A stretch of DNA of 64,000 bases. Origin: a virus. Of this stretch, positions 518-24,012 are shown in pieces. The notes below the pieces were generated by a model. The model did no database searches, was not told where the DNA came from, and was given only the letters and a program-made list of their open reading frames with translations. Within the stretch, counting starts at the first letter, position 1, and every line of letters starts with the position of its first letter. The translations under genes were made by a program, and so were the position numbers. The DNA lies in the IMG/VR virus record IMGVR_UViG_3300031972_002446, positions 101,941 to 165,940 of that record; one strand, given 5' to 3'.

Positions 518-1366
518 ATGGCGAATAGAATTTTTTATGCTTGTCACGCCTTGGCTGTTGATGGAAGTTTTGTCGCCGGTGCTCAAAGCGCTGCTATCAC
601 TACATCTTTTGACCTTGAGCCAGTATTTCAATTAGGTCAATTAGAAGCTGTAGATGTTTTAAATCTATCTCCTAATGTTGAAGTTACAGTAACTAGGGCT
701 CTGACCGATAGTAGCGGTACTATTTTTAGTGGTAGTTTTATTGATAATGTTGGAGATAATAATAAAACAGTTTGCTTAGGTATTGGAGATGATCAGGAGG
801 AGCTATTAACCTCAACATCTTCTATTCATTGTACAGGTATGGGTATTAGTGGTGTTACATATAACTTTCCTGTAGATGGAATATTTACAGAAGAAGTTAG
901 TTTTTCAGGAACTAGCAAGACTGTTGGTGGTTGTAGTGTGAGCGCTTCAGAAGACACAACCTCTAAAGCTTTAGTCAGATATAGTTATCAAAGCGGTGTT
1001 CCTGCTACAGTTACAAACGCTGGTAATTTAACCAATATTAGTATTAGCGCTTCGATTAGTAGAGAAAATTTATTTAGATTAGGTGAATATAAAGCTTATC
1101 ATAATTTTGCAAGTTTGCCTTCTGAAATTACAGTTGATTTTGAAGTTAGTGCTACCAGTGTAGATGGTATCGCAATAGCTGCTGCTGCTGGCTGTAATGG
1201 CCCTACAGACAATAAAGAAGATATTACTATTGCTTTGTGTGGATATAGTTTTGCGATTGAAAATGCTCGTTTAAGTAATGTTGCGTATGGAGGTGGAGAT
1301 ACTGGCGGTGGGAACGCTACTATCACATTCACGTACACATCATATAACAGCTTGACGGTTACGTAA
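518..1366 (+). CDS. Putative tail tube / major tail protein with internal duplication
   Basis: 282 aa, beta-rich and acidic; GGAG RBS; position upstream of chaperones and tape measure gene; two similar halves (EPVFQLG / ENLFRLG). Confidence 0.6.
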   Translation: MANRIFYACHALAVDGSFVAGAQSAAITTSFDLEPVFQLGQLEAVDVLNLSPNVEVTVTRALTDSSGTIFSGSFIDNVGDNNKTVCLGIGDDQEELLTSTSSIHCTGMGISGVTYNFPVDGIFTEEVSFSGTSKTVGGCSVSASEDTTSKALVRYSYQSGVPATVTNAGNLTNISISASISRENLFRLGEYKAYHNFASLPSEITVDFEVSATSVDGIAIAAAAGCNGPTDNKEDITIALCGYSFAIENARLSNVAYGGGDTGGGNATITFTYTSYNSLTVT

Positions 1367-1401
1367 TTTAAATTTTAATAAATTAAATTAAAAGTCAAAA
1401 A

Positions 1402-2451
1402 ATGGACATAGAAGGAAATATATACAGGATTATTACAGGACACTACTATATATCTGTTGATAATACAGATTATAGAGTTGTTTCACCCAATATTCAAATC
1501 AAACAAAAAGCTCATTATATATATAATAATATACTTAATAGTAATAAATTTGATACTAAATACTGGCTTAAGAAAAAACAAGCTGATAGAATATTAGAGA
1601 CTAATGGCATTTGGAATTCAACCAAAGAAGAAAGCCTAAAAGTTTTAAACAACAGGCTAGACGATATGAAAATTGAGTTGTATCTAAAATACGACGATCC
1701 TACTATGAGGAAAAAAATTAAAGCTAGCTTATCTACTGGTAGAATAAAGATTAGTGAGTTAGAAACAAAAAAAACATCGATGGACACCTTAACTTTAGAA
1801 TACTATGCTAATTCAGCAAAAAATGAATATATAGTTTTGAATACGGTGTATAAAGATGAAGAGTTGGTTTTTAAAGGTAAAGATGATACTAGTATTAATA
1901 CAGAGTTTTTGGATAGTATTATCACAGAAGTAAATAGGAACGGTTTAAGTATGGAAGATTTAAGGATTGTAGCTAGAAGTGATCTTTGGAAATCTTACTG
2001 GGATGCTGCCAAAGGTAATATATTTGCACCACCCGCATACGCATGGAATGATGAGCAAAGATTATTGGTGAACCTTAGTAAAATGTATGATTCGGTTCAT
2101 GAACATCCTGAAGCTCCAGATGATAATGTTATTGCTGACGACGATGCTTTAGATGGATGGATGTTGGCCACAAGAAGAAAAGCTGAAAAAGAACGTAAGA
2201 AAACTAAATTAATGGATTCCATAGGTGGTAAATATAAAAATGCAGGAGAAATATTTATTGTTACTCAATCGCAAGAAGAAGCCAAAGGTATTTACGGTCT
2301 GAATGACGCAGAAGGAATGGCTGAAATTAATCATTTGAAAACTATAGCTAAAACCAGTCAAGAACCAGTTCAATGGCAAGATATGCCACATGTTCGTACT
2401 AAGCTAGAAAGTCAATTAAAACAAAGAAACGCTATGAAAAAAGGTGAATAA
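1402..2451 (+). CDS. Hypothetical protein, probable tail assembly chaperone; paralog of 2753..3679
   Basis: 349 aa, helical; lies between tube and tape measure genes; shares SPN, G(I/L)W and DTxTxE motifs with 2753..3679. Confidence 0.45.
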   Translation: MDIEGNIYRIITGHYYISVDNTDYRVVSPNIQIKQKAHYIYNNILNSNKFDTKYWLKKKQADRILETNGIWNSTKEESLKVLNNRLDDMKIELYLKYDDPTMRKKIKASLSTGRIKISELETKKTSMDTLTLEYYANSAKNEYIVLNTVYKDEELVFKGKDDTSINTEFLDSIITEVNRNGLSMEDLRIVARSDLWKSYWDAAKGNIFAPPAYAWNDEQRLLVNLSKMYDSVHEHPEAPDDNVIADDDALDGWMLATRRKAEKERKKTKLMDSIGGKYKNAGEIFIVTQSQEEAKGIYGLNDAEGMAEINHLKTIAKTSQEPVQWQDMPHVRTKLESQLKQRNAMKKGE

Positions 2452-2453
2452 CA

Positions 2454-2753
2454 ATGCAGAGAAAAATACATAGTAGAAGACTAATTATAGAACAATTAGA
2501 AAAAAGATTTAAGACAATCATGATAGGTTCTTTAGCTAGATTTGAAAAAGAATTTGGATATTTATGGAATAATGATGAAGATCCTAATACTGATCAAGAA
2601 GTTTTTTTTAGAGATAAATGGGAGGATTTGAGACACGAATTATTGGATCACGGAAACGACCAAATGAGAAATGGAGTACAGGATTTGAATGATTATTTGA
2701 ATCATGTAGAAAAGTATAATTTACAAATTTATTATAACAGAGGAGAAGAATAA
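2454..2753 (+). CDS. Hypothetical protein (tail operon)
   Basis: 99-aa ORF tightly coupled to both neighbours (2-nt gap upstream; TAATG overlap downstream). Confidence 0.6.
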   Translation: MQRKIHSRRLIIEQLEKRFKTIMIGSLARFEKEFGYLWNNDEDPNTDQEVFFRDKWEDLRHELLDHGNDQMRNGVQDLNDYLNHVEKYNLQIYYNRGEE

Positions 2754-3679
2754 TGGCTGAGACTTTTAAAATGACAGTAAATGGTAAAAATCAGGAATTT
2801 TTGGTACAGTCTCCAAATTTAGCTCAACAAAGAGAAGGTCAGAAAGTTTACAATCAGGCATTTTCTGATGCTGTAAAGTCTGGGTCTATAGTTCGTGCTA
2901 AATTAGATGATTTGCTTAAAGATCAAGGATTATGGGATGATGAAAAGCAAGCTCGTTTTTTAGCTATTCAAGAAGAGTTAAACAATAACGAAAAAAGCCT
3001 AGCTACTGGAGGTATTTCTCTTGAGAACGCTAAAGCCCAGGCTTTAAAAATGAGAGATCTTAGAGAAGAGCTTAAAGAGTTAATTTCTGTTAGAACCAAT
3101 TTAGATACACACACAGCAGAAGGCCAAGCTGATAATGCTAGATTCAACTACTTAGTTTCATCTTGTGTGGTGTATAATAATACCAAGAAAGTTTATTTTC
3201 GTAATTATGAAGATTACCTGAATAAATCTTCTGATCCGGTTGCGGTGATTGGTGCTCAAAAATTAGCAGCTATGCTTTATGGCTTAGACTCTGAATTTGA
3301 GAAAAAATTACCAGAAAATAAGTTTTTGTTAGAATATAAGTTTGTTAATGATGATTTAAGATTCATTAATAAAGATGGTAAGTATGTTGATCAAGACGGT
3401 AGGTTAGTAGATGAAATTGGTAGGTATATCGACGAGGAAGGTAAATATGTAGATAAGGATGGAAATCTGGTTGATGAGTCGGGAGAATATTTAGTAGATT
3501 TTGTTCCTTTTACTGATGATGATGGTAAACCTGTAGTTTTGGAAAAGGGTAAAGATGAAAAACAATCAGAATCACAACAGGATAAACCTAAGGAAGAATC
3601 TACAACTGAACCTGAAGTCACACCTCAGAACACCTCTACCAATCAAGAGGTTCCTACCGAGGAAACTAACACAGAATAA
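2753..3679 (+). CDS. Probable tail assembly chaperone with 7-aa DxxGxxV repeats and an acidic tail
   Basis: 308 aa directly before the tape measure gene; AGGAG RBS; NKDGKYVDQDGRLVDEIGRYIDEEGKYVDKDGNLVDESGEY repeat block. Confidence 0.5.
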   Translation: MAETFKMTVNGKNQEFLVQSPNLAQQREGQKVYNQAFSDAVKSGSIVRAKLDDLLKDQGLWDDEKQARFLAIQEELNNNEKSLATGGISLENAKAQALKMRDLREELKELISVRTNLDTHTAEGQADNARFNYLVSSCVVYNNTKKVYFRNYEDYLNKSSDPVAVIGAQKLAAMLYGLDSEFEKKLPENKFLLEYKFVNDDLRFINKDGKYVDQDGRLVDEIGRYIDEEGKYVDKDGNLVDESGEYLVDFVPFTDDDGKPVVLEKGKDEKQSESQQDKPKEESTTEPEVTPQNTSTNQEVPTEETNTE

Positions 3680-3777: not shown

Positions 3778-6700
3778 ATGGCAGCAGCTTTTAATTTAAC
3801 GGCACAAATTAATTTAAGAGGACCTAGTAATACTAAGGTTATTGCTTCTCAAATTAGAAAGCAATTATCTAATATTAAAGTAAAAGTTAATCTTGATTTA
3901 AAAGGATCAGCAGCTAAAAATGTTACTAAGGTTAACAAGCAGTTACAGTTGTTACAGCAAAATGCTGCTAAAGCTAATGCTAGTGTTGCTAGTTTAAGTG
4001 CTACAGTATCTCAGTTAGGGGCCGGTTTAAATAATTTAGGTGGCTCTGGAGGCGTTCAGTCTCTTAACAAAGTGCAAAAACAAGTGCAAAGTACTGGGAG
4101 TGCTATTAGCTCAGCTACTACCCAAGTTCAAGAATTTGGAAAACAATCAGGCTTAGCTATTCGTAGATTCGCTGCTTTTAGTGCTGTTACTGGTGTTGTT
4201 TATAGTTTAACTAACGCTATTAATAGTGCTTTCAAAGAATTTGTAGCTTTTGATAAACAAATTGTTCGATTAAGTCAGGTAACAGGAACGACTGTTAGTG
4301 GCCTTTCTGGTATTACAAAAGAAATCTCTAATCTATCTAGCAATTTAGGTGTTGCGTCTTCTGATTTAGCTCAAGTATCTGTTACACTTTCTCAAGCTGG
4401 TTTAAGCGCTCAAGAAACTAAAATAGCATTAGAAGCCTTAGCCAAATCTGCATTAGCTCCTTCTTTTGATAATCTTAATAATACTGTTGAAGGTAGTATT
4501 GCTTTAATGCGTCAGTTTAGTATTAGTTCTGGGGAGTTAGAAGCTGCTCTTGGTAGTGTGAATGCTGTAGCTGCTAGTTTTGCTGTTGAAGCTGGCGATA
4601 TCATTGCTGCTATTCAGCGTACTGGTGGTGTGTTTGCTTCTTCTAGTAGGGGTATTAGTGAAGGTACGGCTGCTCTTAATGAATTTGTAGCTTTGTTTAC
4701 TAGTGTTAGAGCGACTACTCGTGAAAGTGCAGAAACTATTGCTACTGGTTTAAGAACTATCTTTACTAGAATACAAAGAGGTTCTACTATAGAGTCTTTG
4801 AAAGAGTTTGGTATTACGCTTACAGACTTACAAGGGAAATTTGTTGGACCCTTTGAAGCTGTTAAACGATTAAGCGAAGGTCTTAAAGGTTTAGATCCAA
4901 GAGATTTGCGTTTTGGTCAAATTGTCGAAGAGCTTGGTGGTTTCCGTCAAATTGGTAAAGTTATTCCTTTAATTCAACAGTTCGCCACTGCTCAAAAAGC
5001 TTTAGGGGTAGCTCAATCTGGGCAAGGCAGTTTATCTAAAGCGGCTATACAAGCTCAAGCATCTTTAGCAGTTCAATTTGAAAAAACCAGACAGTCTTTT
5101 GTTTCTTTAGTTAGAGATATAGGTAATAGCACAACTTTCAGAGGCATTGCTAAAGTTGCTTTAACAACAGCAAATGCATTTATAACATTGGCTTCAGCAT
5201 TAAAACCTTTATTGCCTATGATAACGGCCTTAGCTGCTTTTAAGGGAGTTTCGGCATTAAGTGAATTTGGTGGTGGTTTTCTTGGTGGGTTTGGAGGTAA
5301 AGGCGGAGGCGGAGGAGGCGGAGGTGGTCCATCAGGCCCAATGGGTCCAATAGGTCCTTCTTCTGGCGGTAGTGTTAGTGGTAGAGGTAGTGGTCGTAGG
5401 AATAAAGGCTCGGCTTCTAACAACAAAGCTTTAGCTAAAAATTCAGCAGCTTTAAACGCTAATACAACAGCACTAGGCTCTGTAAATACTAGTATGGCTA
5501 GCTTACTTCAGTCTATTGATGCTTTGTCTGAAGCTATTAATAATAAACAATCTGGAGTTAATACTCAAGGCTTTGCTAGTGGTGGTTTGGTTCCTGGAAG
5601 TGGTAATAGAGACACTGTATCTGCTATGCTAACTCCTGGTGAATATGTTATTCGTAAAAAAGCTGTTGAAAAAATAGGCGCAGATAATCTTAAAAAACTT
5701 AATCGTGGAGGTAGAGTACAAAGATTTACCGGTGGTGGTGGAGCTGAAGCTTTGACTGTAGACGATATTAAAATATTTGAATCTGGTCAAAACGCAGGAG
5801 GAATTCCTAAGGGACAATTAAAAAACATGCCGAGTAGCCTAGCACAATCTGTAATAGATCGTTATAAAGGTAAAGGTAAACTTAATCAAGAAACATTTAA
5901 AGCCTTAAAAGAAAAAGTAGCATTAAAAGCAGCACAAGATAAAGCAGTACCTTATGCACTAGTTGGCCTGAGAGGAACTGCTAAAGAAGTGTTTGCAGAA
6001 GCTGATGACGGAACTATGGTAAAGCTTATTGGCAGAACTTTAGGCGAGACTGATGATAATAAACCTTATGAAGATACTATGTTTAAGGATTTCAAAGACA
6101 CGGTAGCTAAAGTGGCTAATCAGATGGCTACAAAAGTACAAGCTCAGCCAGTATCGCCAGGCGATCTGAATAAAGATGCTATGGAAAAAGCAGGTTTCTT
6201 TAATGCTGTAGGAGCTTATCTCGAAGCGGCTGTAGCAAGTATTGGTGCTCCTTACGATAAAGATCAGTCTAATGATCCACTAGATTTTGCGCAAGGTTTG
6301 GGTTCTGCTTCTGGTTTATTTGGCTTACCATCGGACATGCCTGCTGATACCACAAGAACAGTTTTTAGTAGTGGTAAAAGTCCTGCAGATTTTCTGAAAC
6401 AAGTGAATAATTATAGAGCAAAATTAGCTGGAGGAGGCTCTGTTAGCGACACGGTTCCTGCATTATTAACTCCTGGTGAGTATGTAATCAATGAAAAGTC
6501 TGCAAAAAAATTAGGATCTCAAAAATTAGATCAACTTAATAGAGCAGATAGGATTCAAGGTTATGCTAGTGGCGGCCCTGTTGGTTTTGTTCAACGTTTA
6601 GCTAGTGGTGGTAGTCCTAGAGCAGATAAAATGGAATATCTGGAAAGAGTAGCTAAAAAACTTGGAATGACTGTTTCACAATACGAAAAAAGTATTAGAA

Positions 6701-9700: not shown

Positions 9701-12700
9701 TTGCAGATAACGCTATTAGAGTTAAAGATATTCAATTAAATAGTGCTTTACAATTATCAGAAAAATTTAATAAAACATTATCGTTAAGTAGTCTTAATGC
9801 ACCATTCATGAATTCTGTATCAGGATTAACCGGAGGTACCACAGATCCTGAAAAAATTGGTAGAGAGTTAGCTTCTGCTATCGAAAGACAAAGACAAATT
9901 GAAGCTGATCCTAATTCCCAAACGACTGCTTTAGGCTCTGGTGAAGTTGCTAAATTAACTTCTAAAATTAATAAATATCAAAAAGCTTTAGATATATTAG
10001 CAACTAGTACAGATAGAGCATCTAATGCATTGAAAAAGATTGATGAGCAACAAAGAATTTCTTCTGGACGAAGAAGTGGTGTTATGAGTTTTCTTTCTAA
10101 CATAAATAACCCAGAAGCTTTGTTAGGTATGAGGCAAGAACAACAGTCTTATTCTAATGTTATGGCAGGTACAGGAACTATTACAGATATTGCTAGAGGT
10201 ACTAATAGTCTTAATATGATGGAGTCAACTCAAACTCCTGAGCAGTTCCAGAAAACGCAACAAAAATTCTTTGAAAATGCTATGCGTATTTTAGAGGCTA
10301 ATGGTGCTAATCCCGCTGTCTTTAAACAATTTAGAGAATCATTCGCTGGTGATTTCGCCGCTCCTGATGCAAATCCTGCTGTTAAACCATTTATTGATGC
10401 GTATCAAGAAGCTGCTAGAATACAAACAGAAGCTGTTAAGCAACAATCTAATTTATTAAATAGTGGAGCAGTAATAGCAGCGGATACTTTAAAGAAAAGC
10501 GCAGACGCTTTCGCTACTAAAATGAAAGAAGCCACTGCAGAAATTGTTAAAGAGTTTAACGCAGTTGCTGATAGACTAGGTTTAGGCAAACCTAAGGACT
10601 CTAATAAAATGTCTAGTGGAGGTGTGGTATATGCTTCTGCTGGTCAATTTGTTAATTTTACGCCTAAAGGCACCGATACTGTTCCTGCTATGTTAACGCC
10701 TGGTGAGTTTGTTGTTAATCGATCAGCAACTTCTAAGAATTTACCTTTATTAAAATCTATTAATAGTGGTGGCTATAGTAGTGGTGGTAGTGTTGGTTAT
10801 TATGCTGATGGTGGACAAATCGGACCAGGTTTAAAAACTGTTAATCGTAATTTTAATCTTTTATCTCCTTATCCAGAAAAAAGTTTAGACAATTTCCAAG
10901 AATATAAAGATCATGTACCATATGGGTATATGGATAGGTATTTTGGAAATAAAGATAGTGCTGTTTCTGAACGAGAGCTTAAATCAATGAATCAAGCTAT
11001 TCAGAAACATCAAAAACAATACTTTACCACAACTAAGGTTAATCGCTATAAAAGCTTAAGATCATTAGTGCCTGAATGGGAGAAAAACGAGAAAAACCAA
11101 GACAAACAAGCTAGTTTTTGGGATTGGATTACAGGGTCTAGTCCTGATAGAGGCATGAAATTTAATTCTGGTAATTTTAAAAGTGTTAAAGATGCTAAAA
11201 TTTTTGCTGGAACAATGGAAGCTGCTCATGGTATTCCTTTAGGGCGGGGTGTTGGTACTGGGGATATAGGAAGTTCTACATATAGTGGTAGATTTTATGG
11301 TGGCGATTCTTCATTTCCTATGGATAGTGCTACAAGTCAAGGATTTGGAGAGCTTTTACAACAAAGAATTATACAATCTCGTTCTACAGATTGGGAAGCG
11401 TTTTTCTATGGTTTAGCTTCAAAGGCATTGCCTACTATTGGAGGTATTATTGGCGGTGGTATTGGTGCTGTTTTAGGTGGTACGGCTGCGGTAGCTTCAG
11501 GAGGTCTGGGTGCGTGGGGTGTTCCCATCTTTACTGTAGCAGGTGCTATGGGTGGTAATATGGCTGGTCATGCGGTTAATAGTTTTGCATACAGTATGTT
11601 ACCTGATTCATGGCAAAAGCGTATTGAGCAAAAGGTTAATGACAATCCTGGTTCGTATAATGCCGGACAATGGTTAGGCTTCGGAGCTGATGTGGTAGCA
11701 GGTGGTATGGGCGCCAATGCTGTTGCGAAAGGTATTAGCAGATCTATACCTCCAAGAGCAATAGTTCAACAATTTGTCAGACAGGGTGGTACTACAGGAG
11801 TTAATGCGGCTCGCCCGACTGTAGAAGATGCTATTGATATGGCTACAAAATCTGCTGGAACTAAAGCTGCTAATAATTCTAGAAATATTGGTAATAAAAT
11901 ACCAGTTACAGGTCAGCCAAATGCTACATTAAATATTGGTTCTGTAGATGATATATTGAGTTTACCACCAGGAATAAAACCATCTGGAGGAGCTAGACCT
12001 ACTGGGTTACCTGGAGGAGGAGCTAGACCTACTGGGTTACCTGGACCTACTGGGGCATCTGGTGCTACTGGTGGTGCAGCATCTGCTACTGCTAGAGCTG
12101 GTGCAATTCAAATGAAAAAATTAGCTATGGCTCTAGAAGAAACTTTGTATGCAGGTAAACCGCAACAATTAGTAGATGATATTATGTCTCCTAATGGTAA
12201 AGGTATATATGAGGTATTAGGTAGAGACCCTCAAATTCAAAGTGCTACTTTTAGAAAATTACAAAAACTTCTACATCCAGATATGATGAGACATTCTAAA
12301 ATGTTTGATGGTATGGGTTTAGATGATGCTGCAATAAAACTTTTCCAAAAACGATTGAGCTCAATGAAAACTGTTTTAGATAATAGTCTCATGCGAGCAG
12401 ATTATGATCAGCTTTTAGGGAGAGGTCATTATGCTGACGATCTTTTAGATAATTTATCGCGTAATGGATTTAATGTTAGACAACTGTTGCAGCCAGGGTC
12501 GAGAGCTGCCGCAGCAACACCTAAACCTAAACCAGGTAGCCAAGCGCCGCCAAAACCAAAGGCTGAATCACCAAAACCTAAACCAGATCAACCTAAACCG
12601 GGTCAGCCTAAACCTAAACCAGATCAACCTAAGCCAGGGCAATCTTCTAAACCTAAGCCAGGACAATCGTCTAAACCTAAGCCAGGACAATCGTCTAAAC

Positions 12701-15700
12701 CTAAGCCAGGACAATCGTCTAAACCTAAGCCGGGTGAAACACCTAAGCCGAGTCAACCTAAACCACCTACTGGTAGCGGGTCAAGGACTTGGTCACAATT
12801 TCTGGACGATTGGATGGGTGGTAGCGTTGGTCGGGGTTACTATACCGGTTCAGGTATTGGTGAAATGCTTAGTGGCATGCTCGGTTTTGGTTTAACACCT
12901 GATCCGTCTAAAAGATCATCATCACAAAGCGAATCACCTAAGCCTTTACCTGGTGGTTATCCAGATAAATCTTCTAAAGCTAAAGATCAAGCAGCTAAAG
13001 ACGCTATTGAGCAAATGACAGAAAAAACCAAAAGAACATTTGGAACAACAGATAGGGGTATTATGGACCAAGTTCAATTTGGAACAGACGGTCAATACAA
13101 GTTCGGCCAGGTTCAAAATGCTGCAGCCTCTTTAAAGCTAAAAGATCCACTTAAAAGAGTTAATTTCTTATATAGAAATATTAGTATTCCTGAATTTGAA
13201 CTAGGTATGGGTGGTCAGGGTTCTACAGGCGTAGCTGAGGGTCAGTTATTGACACAAAAACAGCGTAAAGATGCCGAAGAAGAATATTTATTCATTAATA
13301 AAAAAGTCTCAGATATGTATAGTAACCCTTCTGCTCATGGGAATACCTTACAAGCTTACCTCCAAAGAAGAGGTCAGCTTAAGACTATGCTAGATAGTGA
13401 TTTTAGAGCTCAATATAATCTTGGTGTTCCTACAGGAGATAAGCCTACATTTAATCTGAAACCTCCTGTAAAACCCAATACAGAACCGCCTACAGAGAAA
13501 GAAAAAAGAATGCTTAGAGATGGTGTTATAGATGATAATGCCACTCTTCAAGGGCTATTAGCACAGCAAGATACTGGAACAGCAAATAGAAAAAACTCAA
13601 CTGTTATGGCTGGTTTTACACAAAGATTTTCAGATCTTGAAGAGACTAAAAATACAGAAGGCGCTAGCTTTGCTCTCTTAAAGAAATTTAATTCTGTCAA
13701 ATTAGATTATATTAAAGCTTTTGGTCAAGTTAAAGGAGTTAGTGATAAAGCTATAGACCCAGGTTTATTAAGCGTTGCTTCTACTCAAGAACAGGTAGAT
13801 GCTGAAGTAAAAGCTTTAAAAACAGATATATCTTCTAAGACTAATAATAAAGATTGGATGGCTGGAAACTCACAAGCTCAAGCTACAGATAAGCAAAAGA
13901 TTAAAACAAAAGCAGATATAGCAAAAATGGTTGCAAAATATTCTGAACAATCTGGAGTTACAGATCCTAAAAAACTTAAAGATTGGTTACAGAAACAATC
14001 AGGAATTCGTCAAGAGCTTAAAGGTAGACATTCTTTATGGGATAATTATTATACAAAAGAAAAGGAATTTAAAGACAAAGAATTAGAACATTTATTCCAA
14101 ACAGAACGATGGGGATATAGAGATGAGTTAAAGAAAAACCCTGAAGGAAGAATGTATGGTGATGGTAGTATGGGTATGAATAGTTTAGAGTATTTACTAT
14201 TTAATCATCCTGCTAAAGTTGCTCATAATTTTATTAATCCTTTTAATCAAAACAAAAGTACGGATGAATTATTATACGGGGCTCCTCTAGGCACTGTTAA
14301 ACCAGAAACACATGCTACCAGAACTCAAAATGCTATTAGAAAATATCTCAAATCTTTTGGTAAATCTTTAGGCATACAAGCTCCTATCGATGAAAACACC
14401 AATGTCGATGAATGGTTTAAGAATTTAGATCCTAATTTAATGACAGACTTAAATGCTGAAGGAAATCTAAACCAATTAATGAAGGTAGGCAATGAAAGTC
14501 AAGGCGCTACCATGTTAGATATTCTCAAAAATATGTATCAGCCAGGTAGTCAAGAAGTCACAGACAATGTTGCTGCTCGTTTTGGTCTTTGGTCTGTGGT
14601 TGGTGCTGATGATGCTAGAAACAAAGATTTTGGTAAAGAATATCAATCAGAATTCTTAAGAAGACTATACAAATATGTGGAGAGTACATCTACACAGAAA
14701 AGTAAAGAGTCTTTCCAAATGACTGAAAGTGTTGATACATATCTTAAGATGATCGATGCTTTAGCTGCTTATACGGGTCAAATGGATCCTGCTATTTATG
14801 GTAAAGCTTCTGATAATTTCGGACCTTTAGTAATTCCAAAACAATTAAAAGGTAAAACCGAAAAAGAACAAATGAAAAATCTTTCTAGAGTTATTGGGAG
14901 AGATTTTTATAAATATACAAGATCAACATTTGATTATGAATTTGGTGGCATCACGAGTGCTGAAGATTATGGTAAGGTTGGAGATCGCTTAGGTATTCAG
15001 GGTTACAGTCCAGAAGATCTTAGAAGAACAGTTTTTGCTGATAGAAATACTTTAAGACGTATATATGAGCGTAAAGCTTATAGCGTTGGTGGAGGTTTAA
15101 CAACTGCTGATACTTTAGTTAATACTGGTATGGCCACATTATTTAATGCTAATAAAGACAAAACCGTTGATTCTGGGGATTTAGCTAATTTTTATGATTT
15201 AGATGGTAATGTCTTGAGCGAAGGCACTACTATAATGGGTTTGATATCTAAAGCTTTAGATTTTGGAAAAAGAATGCCTGTTGCCAATAGACAGGGTATG
15301 ATTGATTATGCTAAAGACTTCGATTTCAAGGGAAACCTAGCAGACGATAGTTACGCTAAATATGAGGAAAATCTTGATAATAATTTACACGCTTTAAAAT
15401 CCACATATAAACTTTGGGATTCGCTTGTTTATTACAGTAAGCCTAACCCTGGAACAACCAAAGCAGAGACTGTTGATTTAAACGCAGCAGGACCTGTTCT
15501 ACAATCAGCTACGGCGGGAGGTTCTATAAACATTGCTGGTACTCAGATTCCTTCAGTAGATTTCTTAAGTAAGTATCAAAACGCATTGGAAACTACTGGC
15601 GCTAAGGCTTATGGTCAAATTGTAGAAGCTGGTAGTATTTTCAATGATCATGTAGGAGGTAGTAGCAACTTTACATTAGCTGGTGCTCCAAATCCGTTTG

Positions 15701-16448: not shown

Positions 16449-18044
16449 ATGTATAAAGTTCAAAATGAAACCACCACAGAAAATGTATCTACACAGGCTA
16501 TAACTCCCGGAGGAGCTTCTGTAAGTGTTAACGGATCTAATTTATCACCTTCTCCTTTTGTTTCTATTTCTATAGACCAGTTTAGGTCTGGAGAATTAGT
16601 TTTGGGTGGAGTTATGAATGTGTCTTTGAACGGAACTGTTACAGGTGATAGCTTCTCTGAGGTTGTGAGTGCAGTTAAAAATGTTTTAGCTATAGGTAAG
16701 TCCGGGGATTGTGTAAATGTAAATATTAACTGCGGGGGAACTCAATTAGTAAATGGTTATGGTACAATTAAAACTATTAGCGCTAATGAAGGACCTGATC
16801 CTACTTGGGTTCAAGTTGCAACATATAATATAGAAATAGAATTATATGTTAATGAATCAGATTTAGTTGTTAGACCTAATACTAACGCCAGCTCACATGT
16901 AACTGCTAATGAAATTATTAAAGATTTGAGTGAGTCTGTTTCATTAAACTTAGATAATGATGGTTTTGAAACAGATAATATGAATGGTAGTTATGTAGGT
17001 AAAGCTCATGCCAAATATAATTTTTCTATTAGCGCAACAGGGGCTGCTGTGGGTTGCTCTGCTGCCGGTAAATTAGTTGGTATTGAAGCAGCAGAACAGG
17101 TTTTACAAAGAAGAATTAATTCTATTAGCAATGGCAATATAAGTAGCGGTCTGGGTAATACTCCGAATATCTCAAGTCAATTAAGCACATACCATAGTGG
17201 TCAAAAGTTTGCTCACGTTAGAAGTGTAGACGTAGACCCTGTTACCGGAACTGTTAGTGCCTCTGGAGAGGTTATAATGAGACCTTCCGGCTCTCTTTTC
17301 CCTCAAGTTTTTATAGATGTTAGTGTAGACTCTCGCAGTGATAGCACTCAGGTTGGTAGGGTGGTTGTAATTTCTGGTACTATAGAGGGTTTACATGCTC
17401 ACGATTTTAGCTCTATTATTAGTAACGGAACTTTTCATGGAGCAAGCACTGATAGAGTTGGTGTTGCTATTAACGCTTACAACACTTTGAAATCATCTTT
17501 TCCTTCTATTGCCAACGCTTATCAAGAGGCAGAAATTGAAGATGCTTGTTCATTATCAGATCTTTATAATATATGCTTTTCTCAGGTGGATCAAACAGAA
17601 TGTACTATGAGAGAAGTTAATAGTAATGTTACTAGAAATTTTGGTACTGGTAGTGTTTCTTTTACTACAGAGTTCTCTACTGTTCAAAACTGTACTATAG
17701 TAGGAGCCGCTAAAGTAGAGTTGGAGTGTACTCACACATACCCCACAGATGTATTCGCAGAATTTGTGATACCGTTCAGGTCATCAGGCCCTTTAACTCA
17801 AGATTTAGGCACATCAACCAAGGAAGTAATTAGTTGCACAGGTTCTGCTCAAGTAGAAAACCAAGGCTGTGACTCAAGAGATTTATCTAATATTTCTAGT
17901 TGTCTAGAAGGAGCAGTTGATAGTAAGGCTTACGGAGAGGGTGCTGATGCTAGTTGGTATATTACACAAAGAACCAAAACTTATTCGAATACCGGTGTAT
18001 TAAGAATAACTAAGGAATGGACCAAGAGATACGATTGTTCTTAA
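16449..18044 (+). CDS. Putative distal tail / baseplate structural protein
   Basis: 531 aa, beta-rich, Ser/Thr/Val-rich, immediately after the tape measure gene. Confidence 0.5.
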   Translation: MYKVQNETTTENVSTQAITPGGASVSVNGSNLSPSPFVSISIDQFRSGELVLGGVMNVSLNGTVTGDSFSEVVSAVKNVLAIGKSGDCVNVNINCGGTQLVNGYGTIKTISANEGPDPTWVQVATYNIEIELYVNESDLVVRPNTNASSHVTANEIIKDLSESVSLNLDNDGFETDNMNGSYVGKAHAKYNFSISATGAAVGCSAAGKLVGIEAAEQVLQRRINSISNGNISSGLGNTPNISSQLSTYHSGQKFAHVRSVDVDPVTGTVSASGEVIMRPSGSLFPQVFIDVSVDSRSDSTQVGRVVVISGTIEGLHAHDFSSIISNGTFHGASTDRVGVAINAYNTLKSSFPSIANAYQEAEIEDACSLSDLYNICFSQVDQTECTMREVNSNVTRNFGTGSVSFTTEFSTVQNCTIVGAAKVELECTHTYPTDVFAEFVIPFRSSGPLTQDLGTSTKEVISCTGSAQVENQGCDSRDLSNISSCLEGAVDSKAYGEGADASWYITQRTKTYSNTGVLRITKEWTKRYDCS

Positions 18045-18061
18045 AGGAATTTAAATAGGAT

Positions 18062-20002
18062 ATGAATAAAAAATATGAAATAAACTACACTTTTCCTAAT
18101 TGCTTATCAGAATATAGTGGTACTATATCTATCACAGATTTAACGAATGGTAATTTATCCATGACATGGTTGAATTTACCAGAAACAGCTGTGATAAATA
18201 GTAAAGGTATGTCTGTTAATAATTTACAATGCGGCATATATGAATTGGATATATACGACACTAGCACAGATCAAAACCACAAAGAAATTATAGATATTAC
18301 ATGCTTTAACGACCTAACCCTCGATCTTGTACAAATAGATGACTTAAATTGTATAAATGATATGGGCGTTTTAAATATTAGTTGGTCTGGAGGACAGGCT
18401 CCTTATAAAGTGTCTTTAAATTCTGATAGTGTCTCAACTAACGATACTCATTTATCTTATGATATTATAGCTAATAAAAAATACAAATTAACTATTAAAG
18501 ATAGTAATAACTGCATACTGAGCAAATCAGATATTATAAAAACTATTAAACCCATGAAAGTTGAAATAGGTTGGGAATCTATTAAACATAATGGTGGTGT
18601 TTCTGGAGATGTTTTTTATAAAATTCAAGGAGGTGTTGAGCCATATAAAGTAGCTTGGTTTACCCAAAAAGATACCAATCATCCATTAATTATAAATCAA
18701 AATCATATTCAAAATAAACTACAAAGTAATCATTATAAACTAATGGTAACAGACTCTGTTGGATGTTCTATAGATAAATCTTTCTATATTTCAGAACCAC
18801 CTCCTATTATTGTACAAACTAAAGAATCTGCTGATTATAGTTTTAAAGCAACTTATCCTAATATCAAATCAAAAAGTTTCTATAATTTAATATTATTAAA
18901 TAATTATGATAAACCTATAAAATATTTATTAAATAAAAAAATTACTTTAAAACATAAAAATATTAATAGTAAACAAAAAATTATTATGAATTATGGAAAT
19001 ATAACACTAGATGGTGTTGATTATCAGTACTTTTATATTAATCCAGGAATACCTGCTCTTAAAAGCTCGAACTCTGAATTGATAATAGAAGATGGTGATG
19101 ATTCAGAAGCATTGCTTTTATCTCATGATATAAATTTTAATAATCAAAATAAATTGCTGGTAGGTTCTGTTATATTATCAGATATTTATGATTATATATT
19201 TCATGATAATGATATAGTAGAAATTATAGATAATGATGGAAATACGCTAAAAACTTGTATAGATCAAGCACATAACCAGGCTCAATTGTATGACAATATT
19301 AATGCTTCTACAGTAATTAATTTTATTAATAGGGATAATTCTGAATCAGAAGATATTCTTAAATTATTAAATAATAGAAAATCACTTAATAATAATCAAA
19401 TTAAATGCTTAACAACAAAATATAATAATAAGATGGGTGAACTACATTGTTTAATTCACGGTGGGGACAAACAGACTCTTAAGTTAGATATTCTATATTC
19501 AGATGGTAATGTTGATACTTATGATATAGACAATAATAGTATTATTTTAAAGAATTTAACACATGGTACGTATAGAATTAAAGTTTATGATAAGTATAAT
19601 ATAGCGCATGAATATAATAGAATATATACAGGTGAATATTATGAATTCGACATTATGTCTTCTTTTGATGAAGAACAGGAAAATTGTAAGATAGCAGCTA
19701 TATCTAAGTATAATTTAGATCCTAGTTTTCTGAATAGATATGATCAAACTCCTAGTAAATTATTATTTACATCACCAGAATTCAAAAACGGGGTATTAAT
19801 TAATATATCTCCTTCAGAGTCTTGTTATGATATTATTGATGATGAAGGTAATGTTATAGAGGATTGTGGATATAAGGTTATAAATTTGGAATATGGTAAG
19901 TATAAAATATATGCACAGCACGAAGGACATGAATCTGTTGAAAAAGTGTTTTTCGTAAATTCTCCTAAGGAATTAGTAACTATAGTATTAGAAAAGGAAT
20001 AG
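18062..20002 (+). CDS. SprB-repeat / Ig-like protein with possible C-terminal PEGA-like domain (tail-associated adhesin?)
   Basis: SGGQAPYKV, GGVEPYKVAW...YKLMVTDSVGC...ISEP resemble SprB repeats; C-terminal LEYGKYKIYAQHEGH is PEGA-like; more AT-rich than its flanks. Confidence 0.5.
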   Translation: MNKKYEINYTFPNCLSEYSGTISITDLTNGNLSMTWLNLPETAVINSKGMSVNNLQCGIYELDIYDTSTDQNHKEIIDITCFNDLTLDLVQIDDLNCINDMGVLNISWSGGQAPYKVSLNSDSVSTNDTHLSYDIIANKKYKLTIKDSNNCILSKSDIIKTIKPMKVEIGWESIKHNGGVSGDVFYKIQGGVEPYKVAWFTQKDTNHPLIINQNHIQNKLQSNHYKLMVTDSVGCSIDKSFYISEPPPIIVQTKESADYSFKATYPNIKSKSFYNLILLNNYDKPIKYLLNKKITLKHKNINSKQKIIMNYGNITLDGVDYQYFYINPGIPALKSSNSELIIEDGDDSEALLLSHDINFNNQNKLLVGSVILSDIYDYIFHDNDIVEIIDNDGNTLKTCIDQAHNQAQLYDNINASTVINFINRDNSESEDILKLLNNRKSLNNNQIKCLTTKYNNKMGELHCLIHGGDKQTLKLDILYSDGNVDTYDIDNNSIILKNLTHGTYRIKVYDKYNIAHEYNRIYTGEYYEFDIMSSFDEEQENCKIAAISKYNLDPSFLNRYDQTPSKLLFTSPEFKNGVLINISPSESCYDIIDDEGNVIEDCGYKVINLEYGKYKIYAQHEGHESVEKVFFVNSPKELVTIVLEKE

Positions 20003-20004
20003 TA

Positions 20005-20931
20005 ATGTCTAGCTCTAAAGCTTTTAATTGTGAAATTGTAAATATATCATGTAATTTAGGTTTTGGTGCCAGTGAGTCTAGTGTAAATTTAACATTAGTA
20101 GAGTGTGGTACTCCTTATGATGGCTCTTTAGGTTGTGTATATACTATTAATGTTGGTGGTTTTAATTTTACTGGTGTTTTAGCTGATCATACTTATCAAC
20201 AGTCTTCTTCAGGTTTGGTGTGGACAGTTAGACTTACTGATGGTAGGCAAAGTTTAACAAATGTTTCGGTGATACTAAATGACTATTACTGTAATATTGA
20301 TACTCCTAATTTAATTAATGTTTTAGCTTTGTTGGAGCCTTCTATTTGTGAATTCAGTTGCAGTGACTTTATGGCGTCTTTAAAAGACGATACCGGAATA
20401 TTAATGCTGTATATTCTAAGAGCTCTTAATGGTCAATCATGTTTATTACCCGTTTGTGGTGTTACGCTTAATATAGATTTGTCTCAGGTGATTGATATAT
20501 GTCCGGCATATTTAAAGATTAATGATACGCACTCTAATGTTTTAAACATAATAGATCAAGCTTGCCAGGAAGCTGGTTATGACTTTTTTATTCAAATTGA
20601 AGGCAGTTCTTTTGTAGCTGTTCCTATTAGTAAAAAAGTTGCTCCTCCATCCGGAGCTTTACAAACTTTATTAAATACTATCTCTGCAAGTAACTGTGGT
20701 GGTGAAGCCAATATTGATTTTAGATATGGTGAAGAAGCAGCTTATGAACCAAGCAAAAAATTTGTCATTGGAGAAAATATACACTATTTAATGCAAATAG
20801 ATAAAGCGGGGGATTGTGATAATAAACCCAATGACGGAACAATTGGAGGCGTTCCCGATACTGGTGTCATTGACGATCCGGTTGTTACAGGTTTAGCTCT
20901 AACACCATTACCAGAATATAAAGGAGATTAA
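20005..20931 (+). CDS. Putative baseplate hub/tail tip protein (N-terminal part)
   Basis: 308 aa; GFNFTGVL...WTVRLTDGR and IIDQACQEAGYDFFIQ resemble tail hub domains; tail context. Confidence 0.45.
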   Translation: MSSSKAFNCEIVNISCNLGFGASESSVNLTLVECGTPYDGSLGCVYTINVGGFNFTGVLADHTYQQSSSGLVWTVRLTDGRQSLTNVSVILNDYYCNIDTPNLINVLALLEPSICEFSCSDFMASLKDDTGILMLYILRALNGQSCLLPVCGVTLNIDLSQVIDICPAYLKINDTHSNVLNIIDQACQEAGYDFFIQIEGSSFVAVPISKKVAPPSGALQTLLNTISASNCGGEANIDFRYGEEAAYEPSKKFVIGENIHYLMQIDKAGDCDNKPNDGTIGGVPDTGVIDDPVVTGLALTPLPEYKGD

Positions 20932-20934
20932 AGT

Positions 20935-23900
20935 ATGGCATGTTCAGTCAATATGTTTTTTGGTGAAAGGTTATTAGCCAATGGCACTTTTGAAATATTC
21001 ATGTCTGAGCAAGATCAAGTATATATAGAGAATTATGATTGTACCATGATATCTAAAGCTCTTGGTTTAAATTTTACAGATTTTACATTAACAGAGGAAG
21101 AACTTTTAGCCACTGCTAGTATGTCGTGTTGGACTTCTTACATAGGAACCCCTACCGCCAACCAAACAGAGCTTTTTGGGTATAAGGTTTTTGAATCTCT
21201 TTTTGGTGCTGACGGCTTAGCTAAGCTGCGTGACCTAGTAGCAGATAATTTTGAAGATTTAGCATTAAACCAAAATACTGGAGCTATGAATTCTCATATG
21301 AACTCTATAGCTAAAGAAGATGCGGCTGTTAATATCCCTAAATTAGAACAAGCTCATGCTTGGATTTCTAGTATACATAGTGATTTTTATGGAAAACAAT
21401 ACTTAATACAAATAGGAGACGATACGGCTGGGGTTTGTATTAAAGATAGATTTGGTAATATTCCAGCAGGTAATATTAAAATTGAGTCTGAGGGTGGTTT
21501 ATATTATTCTAGCGACTCTCCTGCTTCTGGTGGGGCGTGGCCAAATGCTGGACAGGTTCAGGTATTAGGTTTAAATGTAGGTTCTGAAACTTTATTATTT
21601 CAAGAATCGGATAATCGTATAGGCGCTTTTGTTAAACTATCAGATTATAAAAATGTTTCTAAGTATAATCATACATGGGAAGTTGATTTATCTTCTTTAA
21701 GTGATGATAATTTTTATAAACAGGGAGAAGACTTATTTATTAAAGCTGGCTTATCAGACGCCTTGTATCAGTATGATAACAAACAATATATTTTACTAGA
21801 AATGTCTGCTGTCCCCAGATTGCAGATTAAAGGGGATGGTGAGCTATGCCCGGCTAATCTTATGAGTCAAGGCGCTATTGCTGTGATGGCTTTATTTGAA
21901 AGTCATTACAGTGATGTTGATACAGCTCTTCAGGATATATTTTGTGATGACCCAAATAACACTAAGAACGGTACTGTTCCTAATAGATCAGCATTTAATG
22001 TTTTAAATAGTAATAAGCCTTCTATAGTTCCAGATAATTTTATCTGTCCTATGAAAAGCAATTTATTTGTATATGGTCCCTGGTTTCATCAAACAAATCC
22101 AGTTGGAGGCACAATAGTAGATCCTAATAAAGAATTATGTCCTTGGAGATTTAGCGATGGTAATGATGATGGTTATACTAGAATGGATGTATATGGAAAC
22201 TTAATAGCAAATGATGGACCTAGAGGTTTACAGAAGCAAGAATCTGGTTCTATTACAGTAGCAGCATTACCTTCTTATAATCTCGGTCATATAGTTGCAC
22301 AAAATGCGGCTACTCTTACTGATATTAGTATTAGCATAGGTGAAAGTGGTTATACAACTACTTATAATTTTCAAACATATACTCCAAAATTCGGTAGTCC
22401 TGGTAGAGCATTAAAGGATTTATGGTCTAAAAGCTATCAATCGATGTCTTATTTAAATAAATATTTTAAAGATCAAAAATTAGAATTAAATAAATTAATT
22501 AATAATAATGATATCAGATTACAAGATGCACAAGCTAGAAGATTTGATGTTGATGGTGCTGTTAGTAGTGGCGTTTCTGAAGATGCTGGTAAAGGAGCTA
22601 CAACATCATCAAGTAGTCCGGGTGTTATTTTATTTTCTGGATTTTTCTACAGAGATAAAGAAGATAATGCGCAAGGAGGTGCGGATTCACATGATGGATC
22701 GTCAGTTGAGATGACTCCTTGTTCTAAATGTAGAGACAGCACTACTGACCAAAACATCCCTGAGAAATCTGTAGACTCTGACGGTAATATTTTACAGAAT
22801 AGACCATTTTCTATGTTGGAGAAAGCATATAGTTGGGAACATATTAAAGAAAATACTTTTAAAAGATTAGCTTTATCAAGTTTAGATTTAATTTTTGGAG
22901 GCATTAGCACGAAAACTCAAGAGGATCAAGAAGCAGAACTACCCAGACTATCATTATATACAAATTATGATGCCGATTATTCAGAATGGTCGGATAAAGA
23001 AGATGATGAGGATCCTGGAAGACCACCTAAGTCTAGACCAAGATTAGAAATACCTCCTTTTGAATTTATGAATGAATTAGAGTACGACCTACCCATACAT
23101 CAGCAATATTTAAATAGTGTTACTTCGGGAACCATGTTAAGTAGCTGGGACGATAGATCTAATTCTAGCACTAAAGGATTTATTGCGTATTTAATTAGTG
23201 CTGGTGAAACATATGAAGATTTTAAATTAACTATTTTAGATGAAAATGAAACCGATAGACAAGAATTTGATAATTTTAGATATAATGCTTTAAGAGGACC
23301 TTTAACTCTACAGTCTTGGGGTTACGACACATCTGGAAAACCTATCCCTAACGCCATAGACTCAGCTAACAACACAGAACGAGGTAAGTTTAGAAGAAAA
23401 GGACTCAAAGACAAGTTTTTAAAAGATTGGCTTGAAAATCCCAAATCATGGCCTGTAGGACCTATAGATTTAAGATGGGACAGAGAAAGAGGGGTTTGGG
23501 TATCTCCTCCAGCCAATAAAATTGTGGTAGCTAGATTGACGCAAAATTTGAATAAATTTGGTGTCGCAGAAGCTGAGCTTATAGATCCAGAAGCTGGTTC
23601 AGCTTCGTTCTACGAGTATTATGATATATGGGATAAAGATGGCAGAAATATTAAAGTTGCATTAACTAAAACTAAAATTAAAGTATATGATTTTCTTGGT
23701 ATCGACTTATGTAAATGCGATCATGTTTATGCTTACTATGACGATAATAGATATATCGTTTTAGAAAGTAGTAGAGCTTATAAAGACCCCAATGAGCTAT
23801 GTTGTACAACAGCAACTCCTGTTCCTTCGCCTCACACAACAATACCAACTTCGTGTTGGTGTAATTTAGAATGTCTACAGACTCTTAAAGGATATCAAGA

Positions 23901-24012
23901 AGGTAAGCATCAAGCTTTGGTTCATAAGTCTGAAACTGGTGGTCCCGATTGTTTAGTTTGGGAAGATATTGTTGAATGCTATACACCCCCTCCTGAGCAT
24001 TTTATAGAATAA
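20935..24012 (+). CDS. Putative tail tip/baseplate protein
   Basis: 1025 aa; ITDISISIGESGYTTTYNF-like hub C-terminal segment (LTDISISIGESGYTTTYNF); last gene of the tail operon; own AGGAG RBS. Confidence 0.5.
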   Translation: MACSVNMFFGERLLANGTFEIFMSEQDQVYIENYDCTMISKALGLNFTDFTLTEEELLATASMSCWTSYIGTPTANQTELFGYKVFESLFGADGLAKLRDLVADNFEDLALNQNTGAMNSHMNSIAKEDAAVNIPKLEQAHAWISSIHSDFYGKQYLIQIGDDTAGVCIKDRFGNIPAGNIKIESEGGLYYSSDSPASGGAWPNAGQVQVLGLNVGSETLLFQESDNRIGAFVKLSDYKNVSKYNHTWEVDLSSLSDDNFYKQGEDLFIKAGLSDALYQYDNKQYILLEMSAVPRLQIKGDGELCPANLMSQGAIAVMALFESHYSDVDTALQDIFCDDPNNTKNGTVPNRSAFNVLNSNKPSIVPDNFICPMKSNLFVYGPWFHQTNPVGGTIVDPNKELCPWRFSDGNDDGYTRMDVYGNLIANDGPRGLQKQESGSITVAALPSYNLGHIVAQNAATLTDISISIGESGYTTTYNFQTYTPKFGSPGRALKDLWSKSYQSMSYLNKYFKDQKLELNKLINNNDIRLQDAQARRFDVDGAVSSGVSEDAGKGATTSSSSPGVILFSGFFYRDKEDNAQGGADSHDGSSVEMTPCSKCRDSTTDQNIPEKSVDSDGNILQNRPFSMLEKAYSWEHIKENTFKRLALSSLDLIFGGISTKTQEDQEAELPRLSLYTNYDADYSEWSDKEDDEDPGRPPKSRPRLEIPPFEFMNELEYDLPIHQQYLNSVTSGTMLSSWDDRSNSSTKGFIAYLISAGETYEDFKLTILDENETDRQEFDNFRYNALRGPLTLQSWGYDTSGKPIPNAIDSANNTERGKFRRKGLKDKFLKDWLENPKSWPVGPIDLRWDRERGVWVSPPANKIVVARLTQNLNKFGVAEAELIDPEAGSASFYEYYDIWDKDGRNIKVALTKTKIKVYDFLGIDLCKCDHVYAYYDDNRYIVLESSRAYKDPNELCCTTATPVPSPHTTIPTSCWCNLECLQTLKGYQEGKHQALVHKSETGGPDCLVWEDIVECYTPPPEHFIE

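Follow-up and report, generated by a model that had tools for sequence, protein, structure and literature searches.

A putative divergent J-domain module inside a giant TP901-type phage tail tape measure protein

The DNA analysed here (hereafter the window) is the final 64 kb of IMG/VR virus record IMGVR_UViG_3300031972_002446, which is 165,940 bp long with a G+C content of 32.9%. It contains a giant open reading frame (ORF) of 4,205 amino acids (aa), which we identified as a TP901-type tail tape measure protein (TMP): near its N-terminus it matched PF10145 with 78.6 bits (E 7.4e-22), exceeding the cutoff of 33.2, and many TMP families of PHROG matched the same end of the protein. Within this TMP lies an all-helical module whose core resembles the J-domain of DnaJ-type co-chaperones and holds an intact His-Pro-Asp (HPD) tripeptide (Table 1). 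The J-like stretch and its HPD had been named in the original prediction, which was made from the nucleotide letters, and the sequence it gave proved exact.

In J-domains, helix II and the HPD tripeptide dock on ATP-bound Hsp70/DnaK and trigger ATP hydrolysis. The core of the TMP module begins with I2810, the codon of which starts at 12205, and finishes at 12411 with the Q of YDQ (aa 2878). It contains the J signature residues YEVLG (helix I), FRKL-x4-HPD (helix II) and VLDNSLMRADYDQ (helix III/IV), in the order that had been predicted. The HPD aligned with that of DnaJ, CbpA, HscB and DjlA, and the basic residues of helix II (R2826, K2827 and K2830) were retained. The module is set between two flexible linkers, as had also been proposed: the Pro/Gly/Ala/Thr-rich linker includes a 30-nucleotide in-frame tandem repeat in two copies (GGARPTGLPG, 11986-12045), and the Lys/Pro-rich linker a 24-nucleotide in-frame tandem repeat in 4.4 copies (KPKPGQSS, 12626-12731). 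The hydrophobic glycine-rich segment expected upstream was found about 220 residues before the module; it is the strongest hydrophobic Gly-rich segment of that part of the TMP, with Kyte-Doolittle values of at least 1.4 in a 19-aa frame and a peak of 1.67.

Table 1. Features of the tape measure protein gene and its J-domain-like module (window coordinates)
Feature	Residues (aa)	Coordinates	Strand	Basis
Giant tape measure protein ORF	4,205 aa	3778..16395	+	translation as single ORF
TP901/PhageMin_Tail core	181-375	4318..4902	+	PF10145 and PHROG TMP families
Gly-rich hydrophobic (glycine-zipper-like) segment	2550-2588	11425..11541	+	Kyte-Doolittle
Pro/Gly/Ala/Thr-rich linker	~2729-2775	11962..12102	+	composition
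All-helical module, linker-bounded, J-like core inside	2776-2908 (~133 aa)	12103..12501	+	AlphaFold helices, low confidence
J-domain-like core: YEVLG, FRKLQKLLHPD, VLDNSLMRADYDQ	2810-2878 (69 aa)	12205..12411	+	Pfam, NCBIfam, hhalign
HPD tripeptide, codons cat cca gat	2833-2835	12274..12282	+	translation
Lys/Pro-rich linker, KPKPGQSS repeats	~2913-2995	12514..12762	+	composition, repeats

Several comparisons agreed in pointing to a J-domain. DnaJ (PF00226) was the only Pfam family at E<=1 both for the module (aa 2780-2900; 13.7 bits, E 0.068) and for the core (aa 2804-2886; 15.4 bits, E 0.02), and the match spanned profile positions 19-63 of 63. NCBIfam gave three weak matches, of which two were J co-chaperones, namely HscB (E 0.023, the top match) and DnaJ_bact (E 0.088), and both fell at their J-domain positions. 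BLASTP against residues 1-80 of Escherichia coli DnaJ gave 26.9 bits with 33% identity and 17 gap columns. Smith-Waterman comparison with E. coli proteins gave z values of 8.4 for DnaJ, 8.9 for CbpA and 7.4 for HscB, none of 3,000 shuffles reaching an equal score, but only 3.4 for DjlA.

We also built a hidden Markov model (HMM) and an alignment from 84 J-domains (80 from IMG/VR and four from E. coli), and used as background 6,404 natural segments from other giant TMPs and phage six-frame ORFs together with 5,000 shuffles. With this HMM the module scored 13.8 bits and ranked second of 9,662, the best shuffle reaching 8.9 bits; the single segment scoring higher than the module is itself a J-module. 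Through hhalign against the 84 J-domains, a probability of 85% (P 5.9e-6) was obtained over 64 columns, covering J-domain columns 4-71 of 75 and hence helices I-IV. A repeat run gave 80%, while the maxima were 10.7% among 278 shuffles and 16.8% among 278 random natural TMP segments; the score was 30.5-31.6 for the module and at most 21.0 in the controls (n=556). Among the named clusters shown by the ESM atlas, DnaJ came first, with a score of 0.89 (under the line of 0.9) and a recognition of 3084; the ten best family-bearing matches all came from one family or clan. Judged by these comparisons, the resemblance of the core to J-domains exceeds chance expectation.

A number of results weigh against the J-domain reading. 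The PF00226 scores lie below the gathering cutoff of 27.8 bits, and no curated threshold was reached in any library. When the TMP was scanned as pieces of 500-1,000 aa, no PF00226 match was obtained, and extending the Pfam search space from a single segment of 121 aa to the entire TMP or window lifts the E-value above 1. No J-domain was found when 1.84 billion representatives were searched exhaustively with phmmer, and phmmer against the PDB matched none either. The stretch was moreover picked by eye in a large scan, which brings a multiple-testing burden. Pairwise scores alone are insufficient here, because a charged and plainly non-J helix in another giant TMP, P0017 (P-numbers denote the giant TMP proteins and L-numbers the contigs that were compared), reached 28.9 bits against CbpA. 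Two other proteins, P0004 and P0005, were the sole matches of the exhaustive phmmer search and were rejected as repeat-driven false matches. The PDB search returned the designer PPR protein 5i9d (E 3e-13), also rejected, because its score was the sum of ten repeat matches of about 5 bits.

The sub-threshold scores, the phmmer searches without a J-domain and the choice by eye would also suit a chance look-alike. On that reading the tape measure would have here an ordinary helical spacer or adaptor, perhaps a helix-turn-helix of TPR/PPR type packed among other helices, that carries YEVLG, HPD and RADYDQ by chance and has no tie to Hsp70. The stretch from LQKLLHPD to KLFQKRL is the part that matched the designer PPR repeats, and it matched the TPR protein MamA at E 0.11, so that the residues directly behind the HPD allow a reading as a hairpin of TPR/PPR type as well; J-like false positives do occur in the same protein class, in P0017 and in P0014, where an HPD stands without Pfam or ESM support. 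However, TPR and PPR families were absent from Pfam at E<=1 whereas DnaJ was present, and the low E-value for PPR arises artificially from adding up weak repeat matches. An hhalign probability of 80-85% over all four J helices against no more than 17% in 556 controls, with two libraries and the ESM features indicating J co-chaperones, speaks against the look-alike, which we consider a minority possibility, though one of real weight.

The structure models did not help the J-domain reading. In the AlphaFold check that went with the original prediction, the two single-sequence models were poor (predicted local distance difference test, pLDDT, 65 and 56), and in both the helix ran on through the HPD, a feature that the look-alike would explain. 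The order of helices in these low-confidence models was short-long-long-short. Foldseek against the PDB, in two runs, gave no match at E<=0.001, the CbpA J-domain 3ucs_D appearing only at E 6.7 with a TM score of 0.25, and a wide VIA-align search matched generic helical bundles only (Z<=6.6) and no J fold. Since the AlphaFold models were of low confidence, the missing J-fold match does not refute the fold.

For a possible partner, TMP aa 2775-2915 were co-folded with E. coli DnaK 1-605 and ATP. The co-fold score was 0.44, compared with 0.21 for the best control, which is a weak pass: the pass mark was attained by 51 of 78 solved complexes and 2 of 108 mismatches, and scores of 0.60 or less were seen for only 5 of the 78 solved complexes and for all 4 passing mismatches. 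The runs had at least 85% of contacts in common, and the pLDDT of the partner was at least 71. This result speaks, weakly, against the look-alike. The pass may mirror likeness only, because a complex of DnaK with a J-domain is already solved. The phage genome gave no match to HSP70, and none to PF00226 at E<=0.001; with no phage Hsp70, any partner must be host DnaK.

The form of the core also departs from the canonical J-domain of about 70 aa with a short HPD loop. The spacing of the landmarks, predicted as near-canonical, is so only roughly: compared with E. coli DnaJ, the core lacks 4 residues between helix I and HPD, some 8-10 extra residues follow the HPD (+10 from HPD to the Tyr of helix IV), and two usual J core positions are substituted (E. 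coli A29 to Gln and Y54 to Lys). These departures count against the J-domain reading, and such strong divergence, with indels beside the HPD loop and substitutions in the core, would fit a degenerate J-like domain, a J-domain descendant that no longer activates Hsp70 and instead has a structural or docking role within the tape measure. Pam16/Tim16 is such a J-like domain that no longer activates Hsp70. A second family of J-modules in giant TMPs, described below as A2, has lost the HPD proline in five of its six members (HSD in place of HPD), which indicates that TMP J-modules can drift from the canonical motif and yet be kept. In the window module, though, the HPD is intact, the helix II basic residues are kept and the co-fold with DnaK passed weakly, and we regard the degenerate domain as rather unlikely, below the look-alike in probability.

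The module has few relatives. The sole one was found in ENA contig L085 (44,879 bp; protein P0009), which is near-identical. Between the two copies the module has identical amino acids, with one synonymous and no non-synonymous changes, too few for a selection test; both linkers differ, by substitutions and by repeat number, and the module between them is unchanged. A single aa-identical relative is uninformative on the conservation of HPD and adds to the case against the J-domain reading. The TMP in L085 (L085:2610-15127) was called as three ORFs of 423, 1,953 and 1,708 aa. A protein homologue search with aa 2770-2900 returned only the TMP itself, tblastn against 50,697 phage records gave no relative of the module, and no match was obtained in IMG/VR scans with aa 2500-2900 and aa 3050-4205 or in a metagenome scan with the module.

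At greater distance, 72 large TP901-type TMP relatives of 2,312-7,275 aa were found. What these giant TMPs have in common with the window TMP is the N-terminal core, the long helical blocks and a TDTVPAMLTPGEYV-type motif that recurs; aa ~2700-3085 have no counterpart in them. The module is lineage-specific. The TDTVPAMLTPGEYV-type motif occurs four times in the window TMP, at ~5611, ~6448, ~10675 and ~15841 (aa ~612, ~891, ~2300 and ~4022). No other element is as widespread among the 72 relatives; at least five copies are present in some of them, and the motif splits giant TMPs into blocks that are otherwise unrelated.

Survey of homologous TMPs for the domain, as had been suggested, thus gave the window's own module in one relative only, but it revealed J-modules of another kind in six other giant TMPs (P0029, P0033 and P0081-P0084; TP901-type, 4,500-5,400 aa). 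This family, A2, was first met in the background scan with our HMM, in P0029 (aa ~661-746) and P0033 (aa ~1104-1189), and has L086:5941-6300 among its loci. Its motifs are EEILGF, AFR(K/R)AALIHH(S/P)DRGG and MAQVNxAFQRLKD, with a Pro-rich linker after them; the tripeptide reads HPD in P0084 and HSD in the other five members. DnaJ was the sole Pfam match of A2 (in P0084 E 7.8e-5, 23.1 bits), hhalign against J-domains gave 95.6% (P 1.2e-8), and all 12 matches of a PDB profile search were J-domains, Sis1, DNAJB12, DNAJA1, T antigens and TIM14 among them. As a predicted J-domain, the A2 module is better supported than the window module. The two are alike in TMP class, in being small J-like modules followed by a Pro-rich linker and in having DnaJ as the only Pfam match; A2 differs in lying near the N-terminal third, in its short HPDRGG type without insertion and in the HSD of most members. 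The window module has no detectable resemblance to A2, and this also tells against it. Divergent and without informative relatives, the window copy on its own is the weakest kind of example.

Other giant TMPs carry further cargo. P0057 has an ADP-ribosyltransferase exoenzyme domain at aa ~1041-1135 (PF03496, 28 bits against a cutoff of 23.4), and P0021 has a staphylococcal nuclease domain (PF00565, 34.3 bits against a cutoff of 21) as well as SHD1 (PF03983) above the Pfam cutoff, the modules of P0021 lying at aa 726-822 and ~5278-5332. By such profile matches, foreign functional modules, putative J-domains included, recur in giant TMPs, and this recurrence gives a higher prior for a J-module in the window. 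The presence of NAD-using and nuclease modules in the relatives suggests that TMP modules reach the cell interior.

Some further candidates in these proteins were rejected. The region of P0029 at aa 500-660 appeared staphylococcal-nuclease-like by eye and had no Pfam support. In P0014, a TMP of 6,033 aa, an HPD-bearing stretch at aa ~4897-4950 (EYEDIFG ... RIINSFHPDMTPG ... AAAWRVLED) appeared J-like by eye; it had no Pfam match, hhalign gave 42% and the ESM features were not J-like, so that it is probably a chance occurrence. The segments of P0017 and P0023 taken up by our HMM were non-J matches to parts of the model.

Around the TMP gene, eight ORFs (window 518-3679 and 16449-24012) are all co-oriented with it. 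Scans of these neighbours with Pfam and PHROG gave no significant family, the sole exception being a 646-aa ORF with a weak Hoc-like immunoglobulin match. By these scans, the putative tail module of the phage diverges strongly from known families.

Compared with known J-proteins, the TMP module resembles in layout those of class C, such as DjlA and HscB. It has the same motif order (Y-x-x-L-G, aromatic-basic-basic-Leu, HPD, V-L ... R-A-x-Y-D), and its putative J-domain likewise lies away from the N-terminus and is without Gly/Phe and zinc-finger regions; in DjlA, too, the J-domain comes after a hydrophobic stretch rich in glycine and a flexible linker. Unlike DjlA and HscB, the TMP module stays below every curated cutoff, lacks 4 residues before helix II and has about 10 more after HPD, and sits inside a 4,205-aa virion protein, with a predicted activity. 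Sec63 and Pam18/Tim14 are membrane-tethered J-proteins of translocons. The TMP shares with them the succession of hydrophobic segment, linker and putative J-domain, an arrangement that by analogy could put Hsp70 at a channel exit. Homology outside the predicted J-domain was not found.

The phage J-proteins met in the literature are free-standing. Rki of Enterobacteriophage RB43 is reported as a phage-encoded J-domain acting on host DnaK, as RB43 lacks a phage Hsp70 (Perrody et al. 2012, PMC3486835, as cited in PMC12619734); the TMP module would be alike in this, and unlike it Rki is a small free-standing protein instead of a domain internal to a virion tape measure. Besides Rki, free-standing J-proteins include the moraphage DnaJs (PMC12619734), and DnaJ co-chaperones of jumbo phages have been described (PMC7824862), in a paper that also cites TMP hydrolase motifs. 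The best 80 IMG/VR J-domains, those closest to DnaJ, were all N-terminal and in ORFs of 92-456 aa. For inserted modules, the TMP of mycobacteriophage TM4 is reported to carry a peptidoglycan-hydrolase motif (Piuri and Hatfull 2006, PMC1796659). As in the window TMP, the foreign functional modules of the TM4 TMP, P0057 and P0021 are inserted downstream of the TP901 core; they are enzymes acting on cell wall, nucleic acid or protein, whereas the window module would be a co-chaperone signal. Our full-text literature search returned only free-standing phage J-proteins and no J-domain described inside a tape measure, in agreement with the original prediction, and the fusion appears to be new to the literature.

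Taking the evidence together, a J-domain is the best available reading of the core. The domain is probable, with a predicted fold and activity, and the several consistent tests that favour it were all below threshold. In terms of descent, it is fairly likely that the module is a true homologue of J-domains. For the fuller claim, that aa 2810-2878 form a genuine J-domain, divergent yet with its HPD loop intact, we see about an even chance, and the odds are similarly balanced for the module being a working recruiter of host DnaK.

If the J-domain is a working one, helix II and HPD would, by analogy with characterised J-domains, bind host DnaK in its ATP state and set off ATP hydrolysis. After hydrolysis, DnaK would clamp nearby segments of the TMP, for which the Gly-rich hydrophobic helices upstream and the unfolded linkers would be available. 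The lack of a phage Hsp70 fits this general idea, and so do the enzyme modules and, in one lineage, the clearer J-domain of related giant TMPs. Two timings, both already raised in the original prediction, may be considered. In the first, which we slightly favour, the hydrophobic helices would lie in the inner membrane after ejection and the J-domain, thus tethered, would point into the cytoplasm, an arrangement as in DjlA, Sec63 or Pam18; DnaK would hold the ejected chain with its modules, pull it or refold it. In the second, DnaK would act in the producing cell and keep the hydrophobic 4,205-aa chain soluble until tail loading. The complete form of the first scheme, in which an ejected TMP with membrane helices and a working cytoplasmic J-domain makes host DnaK a pulling or refolding motor, the phage counterpart of import driven by Sec63 or Pam18, is improbable in our judgement. 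If true, such a motor would act on the phage protein as it enters, and perhaps also on its cargo or on DNA.

Tape measure proteins are usually viewed as rulers or channel formers. A J-domain in a TMP would link a virion protein to the host Hsp70 system, and this link could operate at tail assembly or at entry. The window module, the A2 modules and the ADP-ribosyltransferase and nuclease modules of the related proteins support a view of giant TMPs as modular carriers of host-directed domains.

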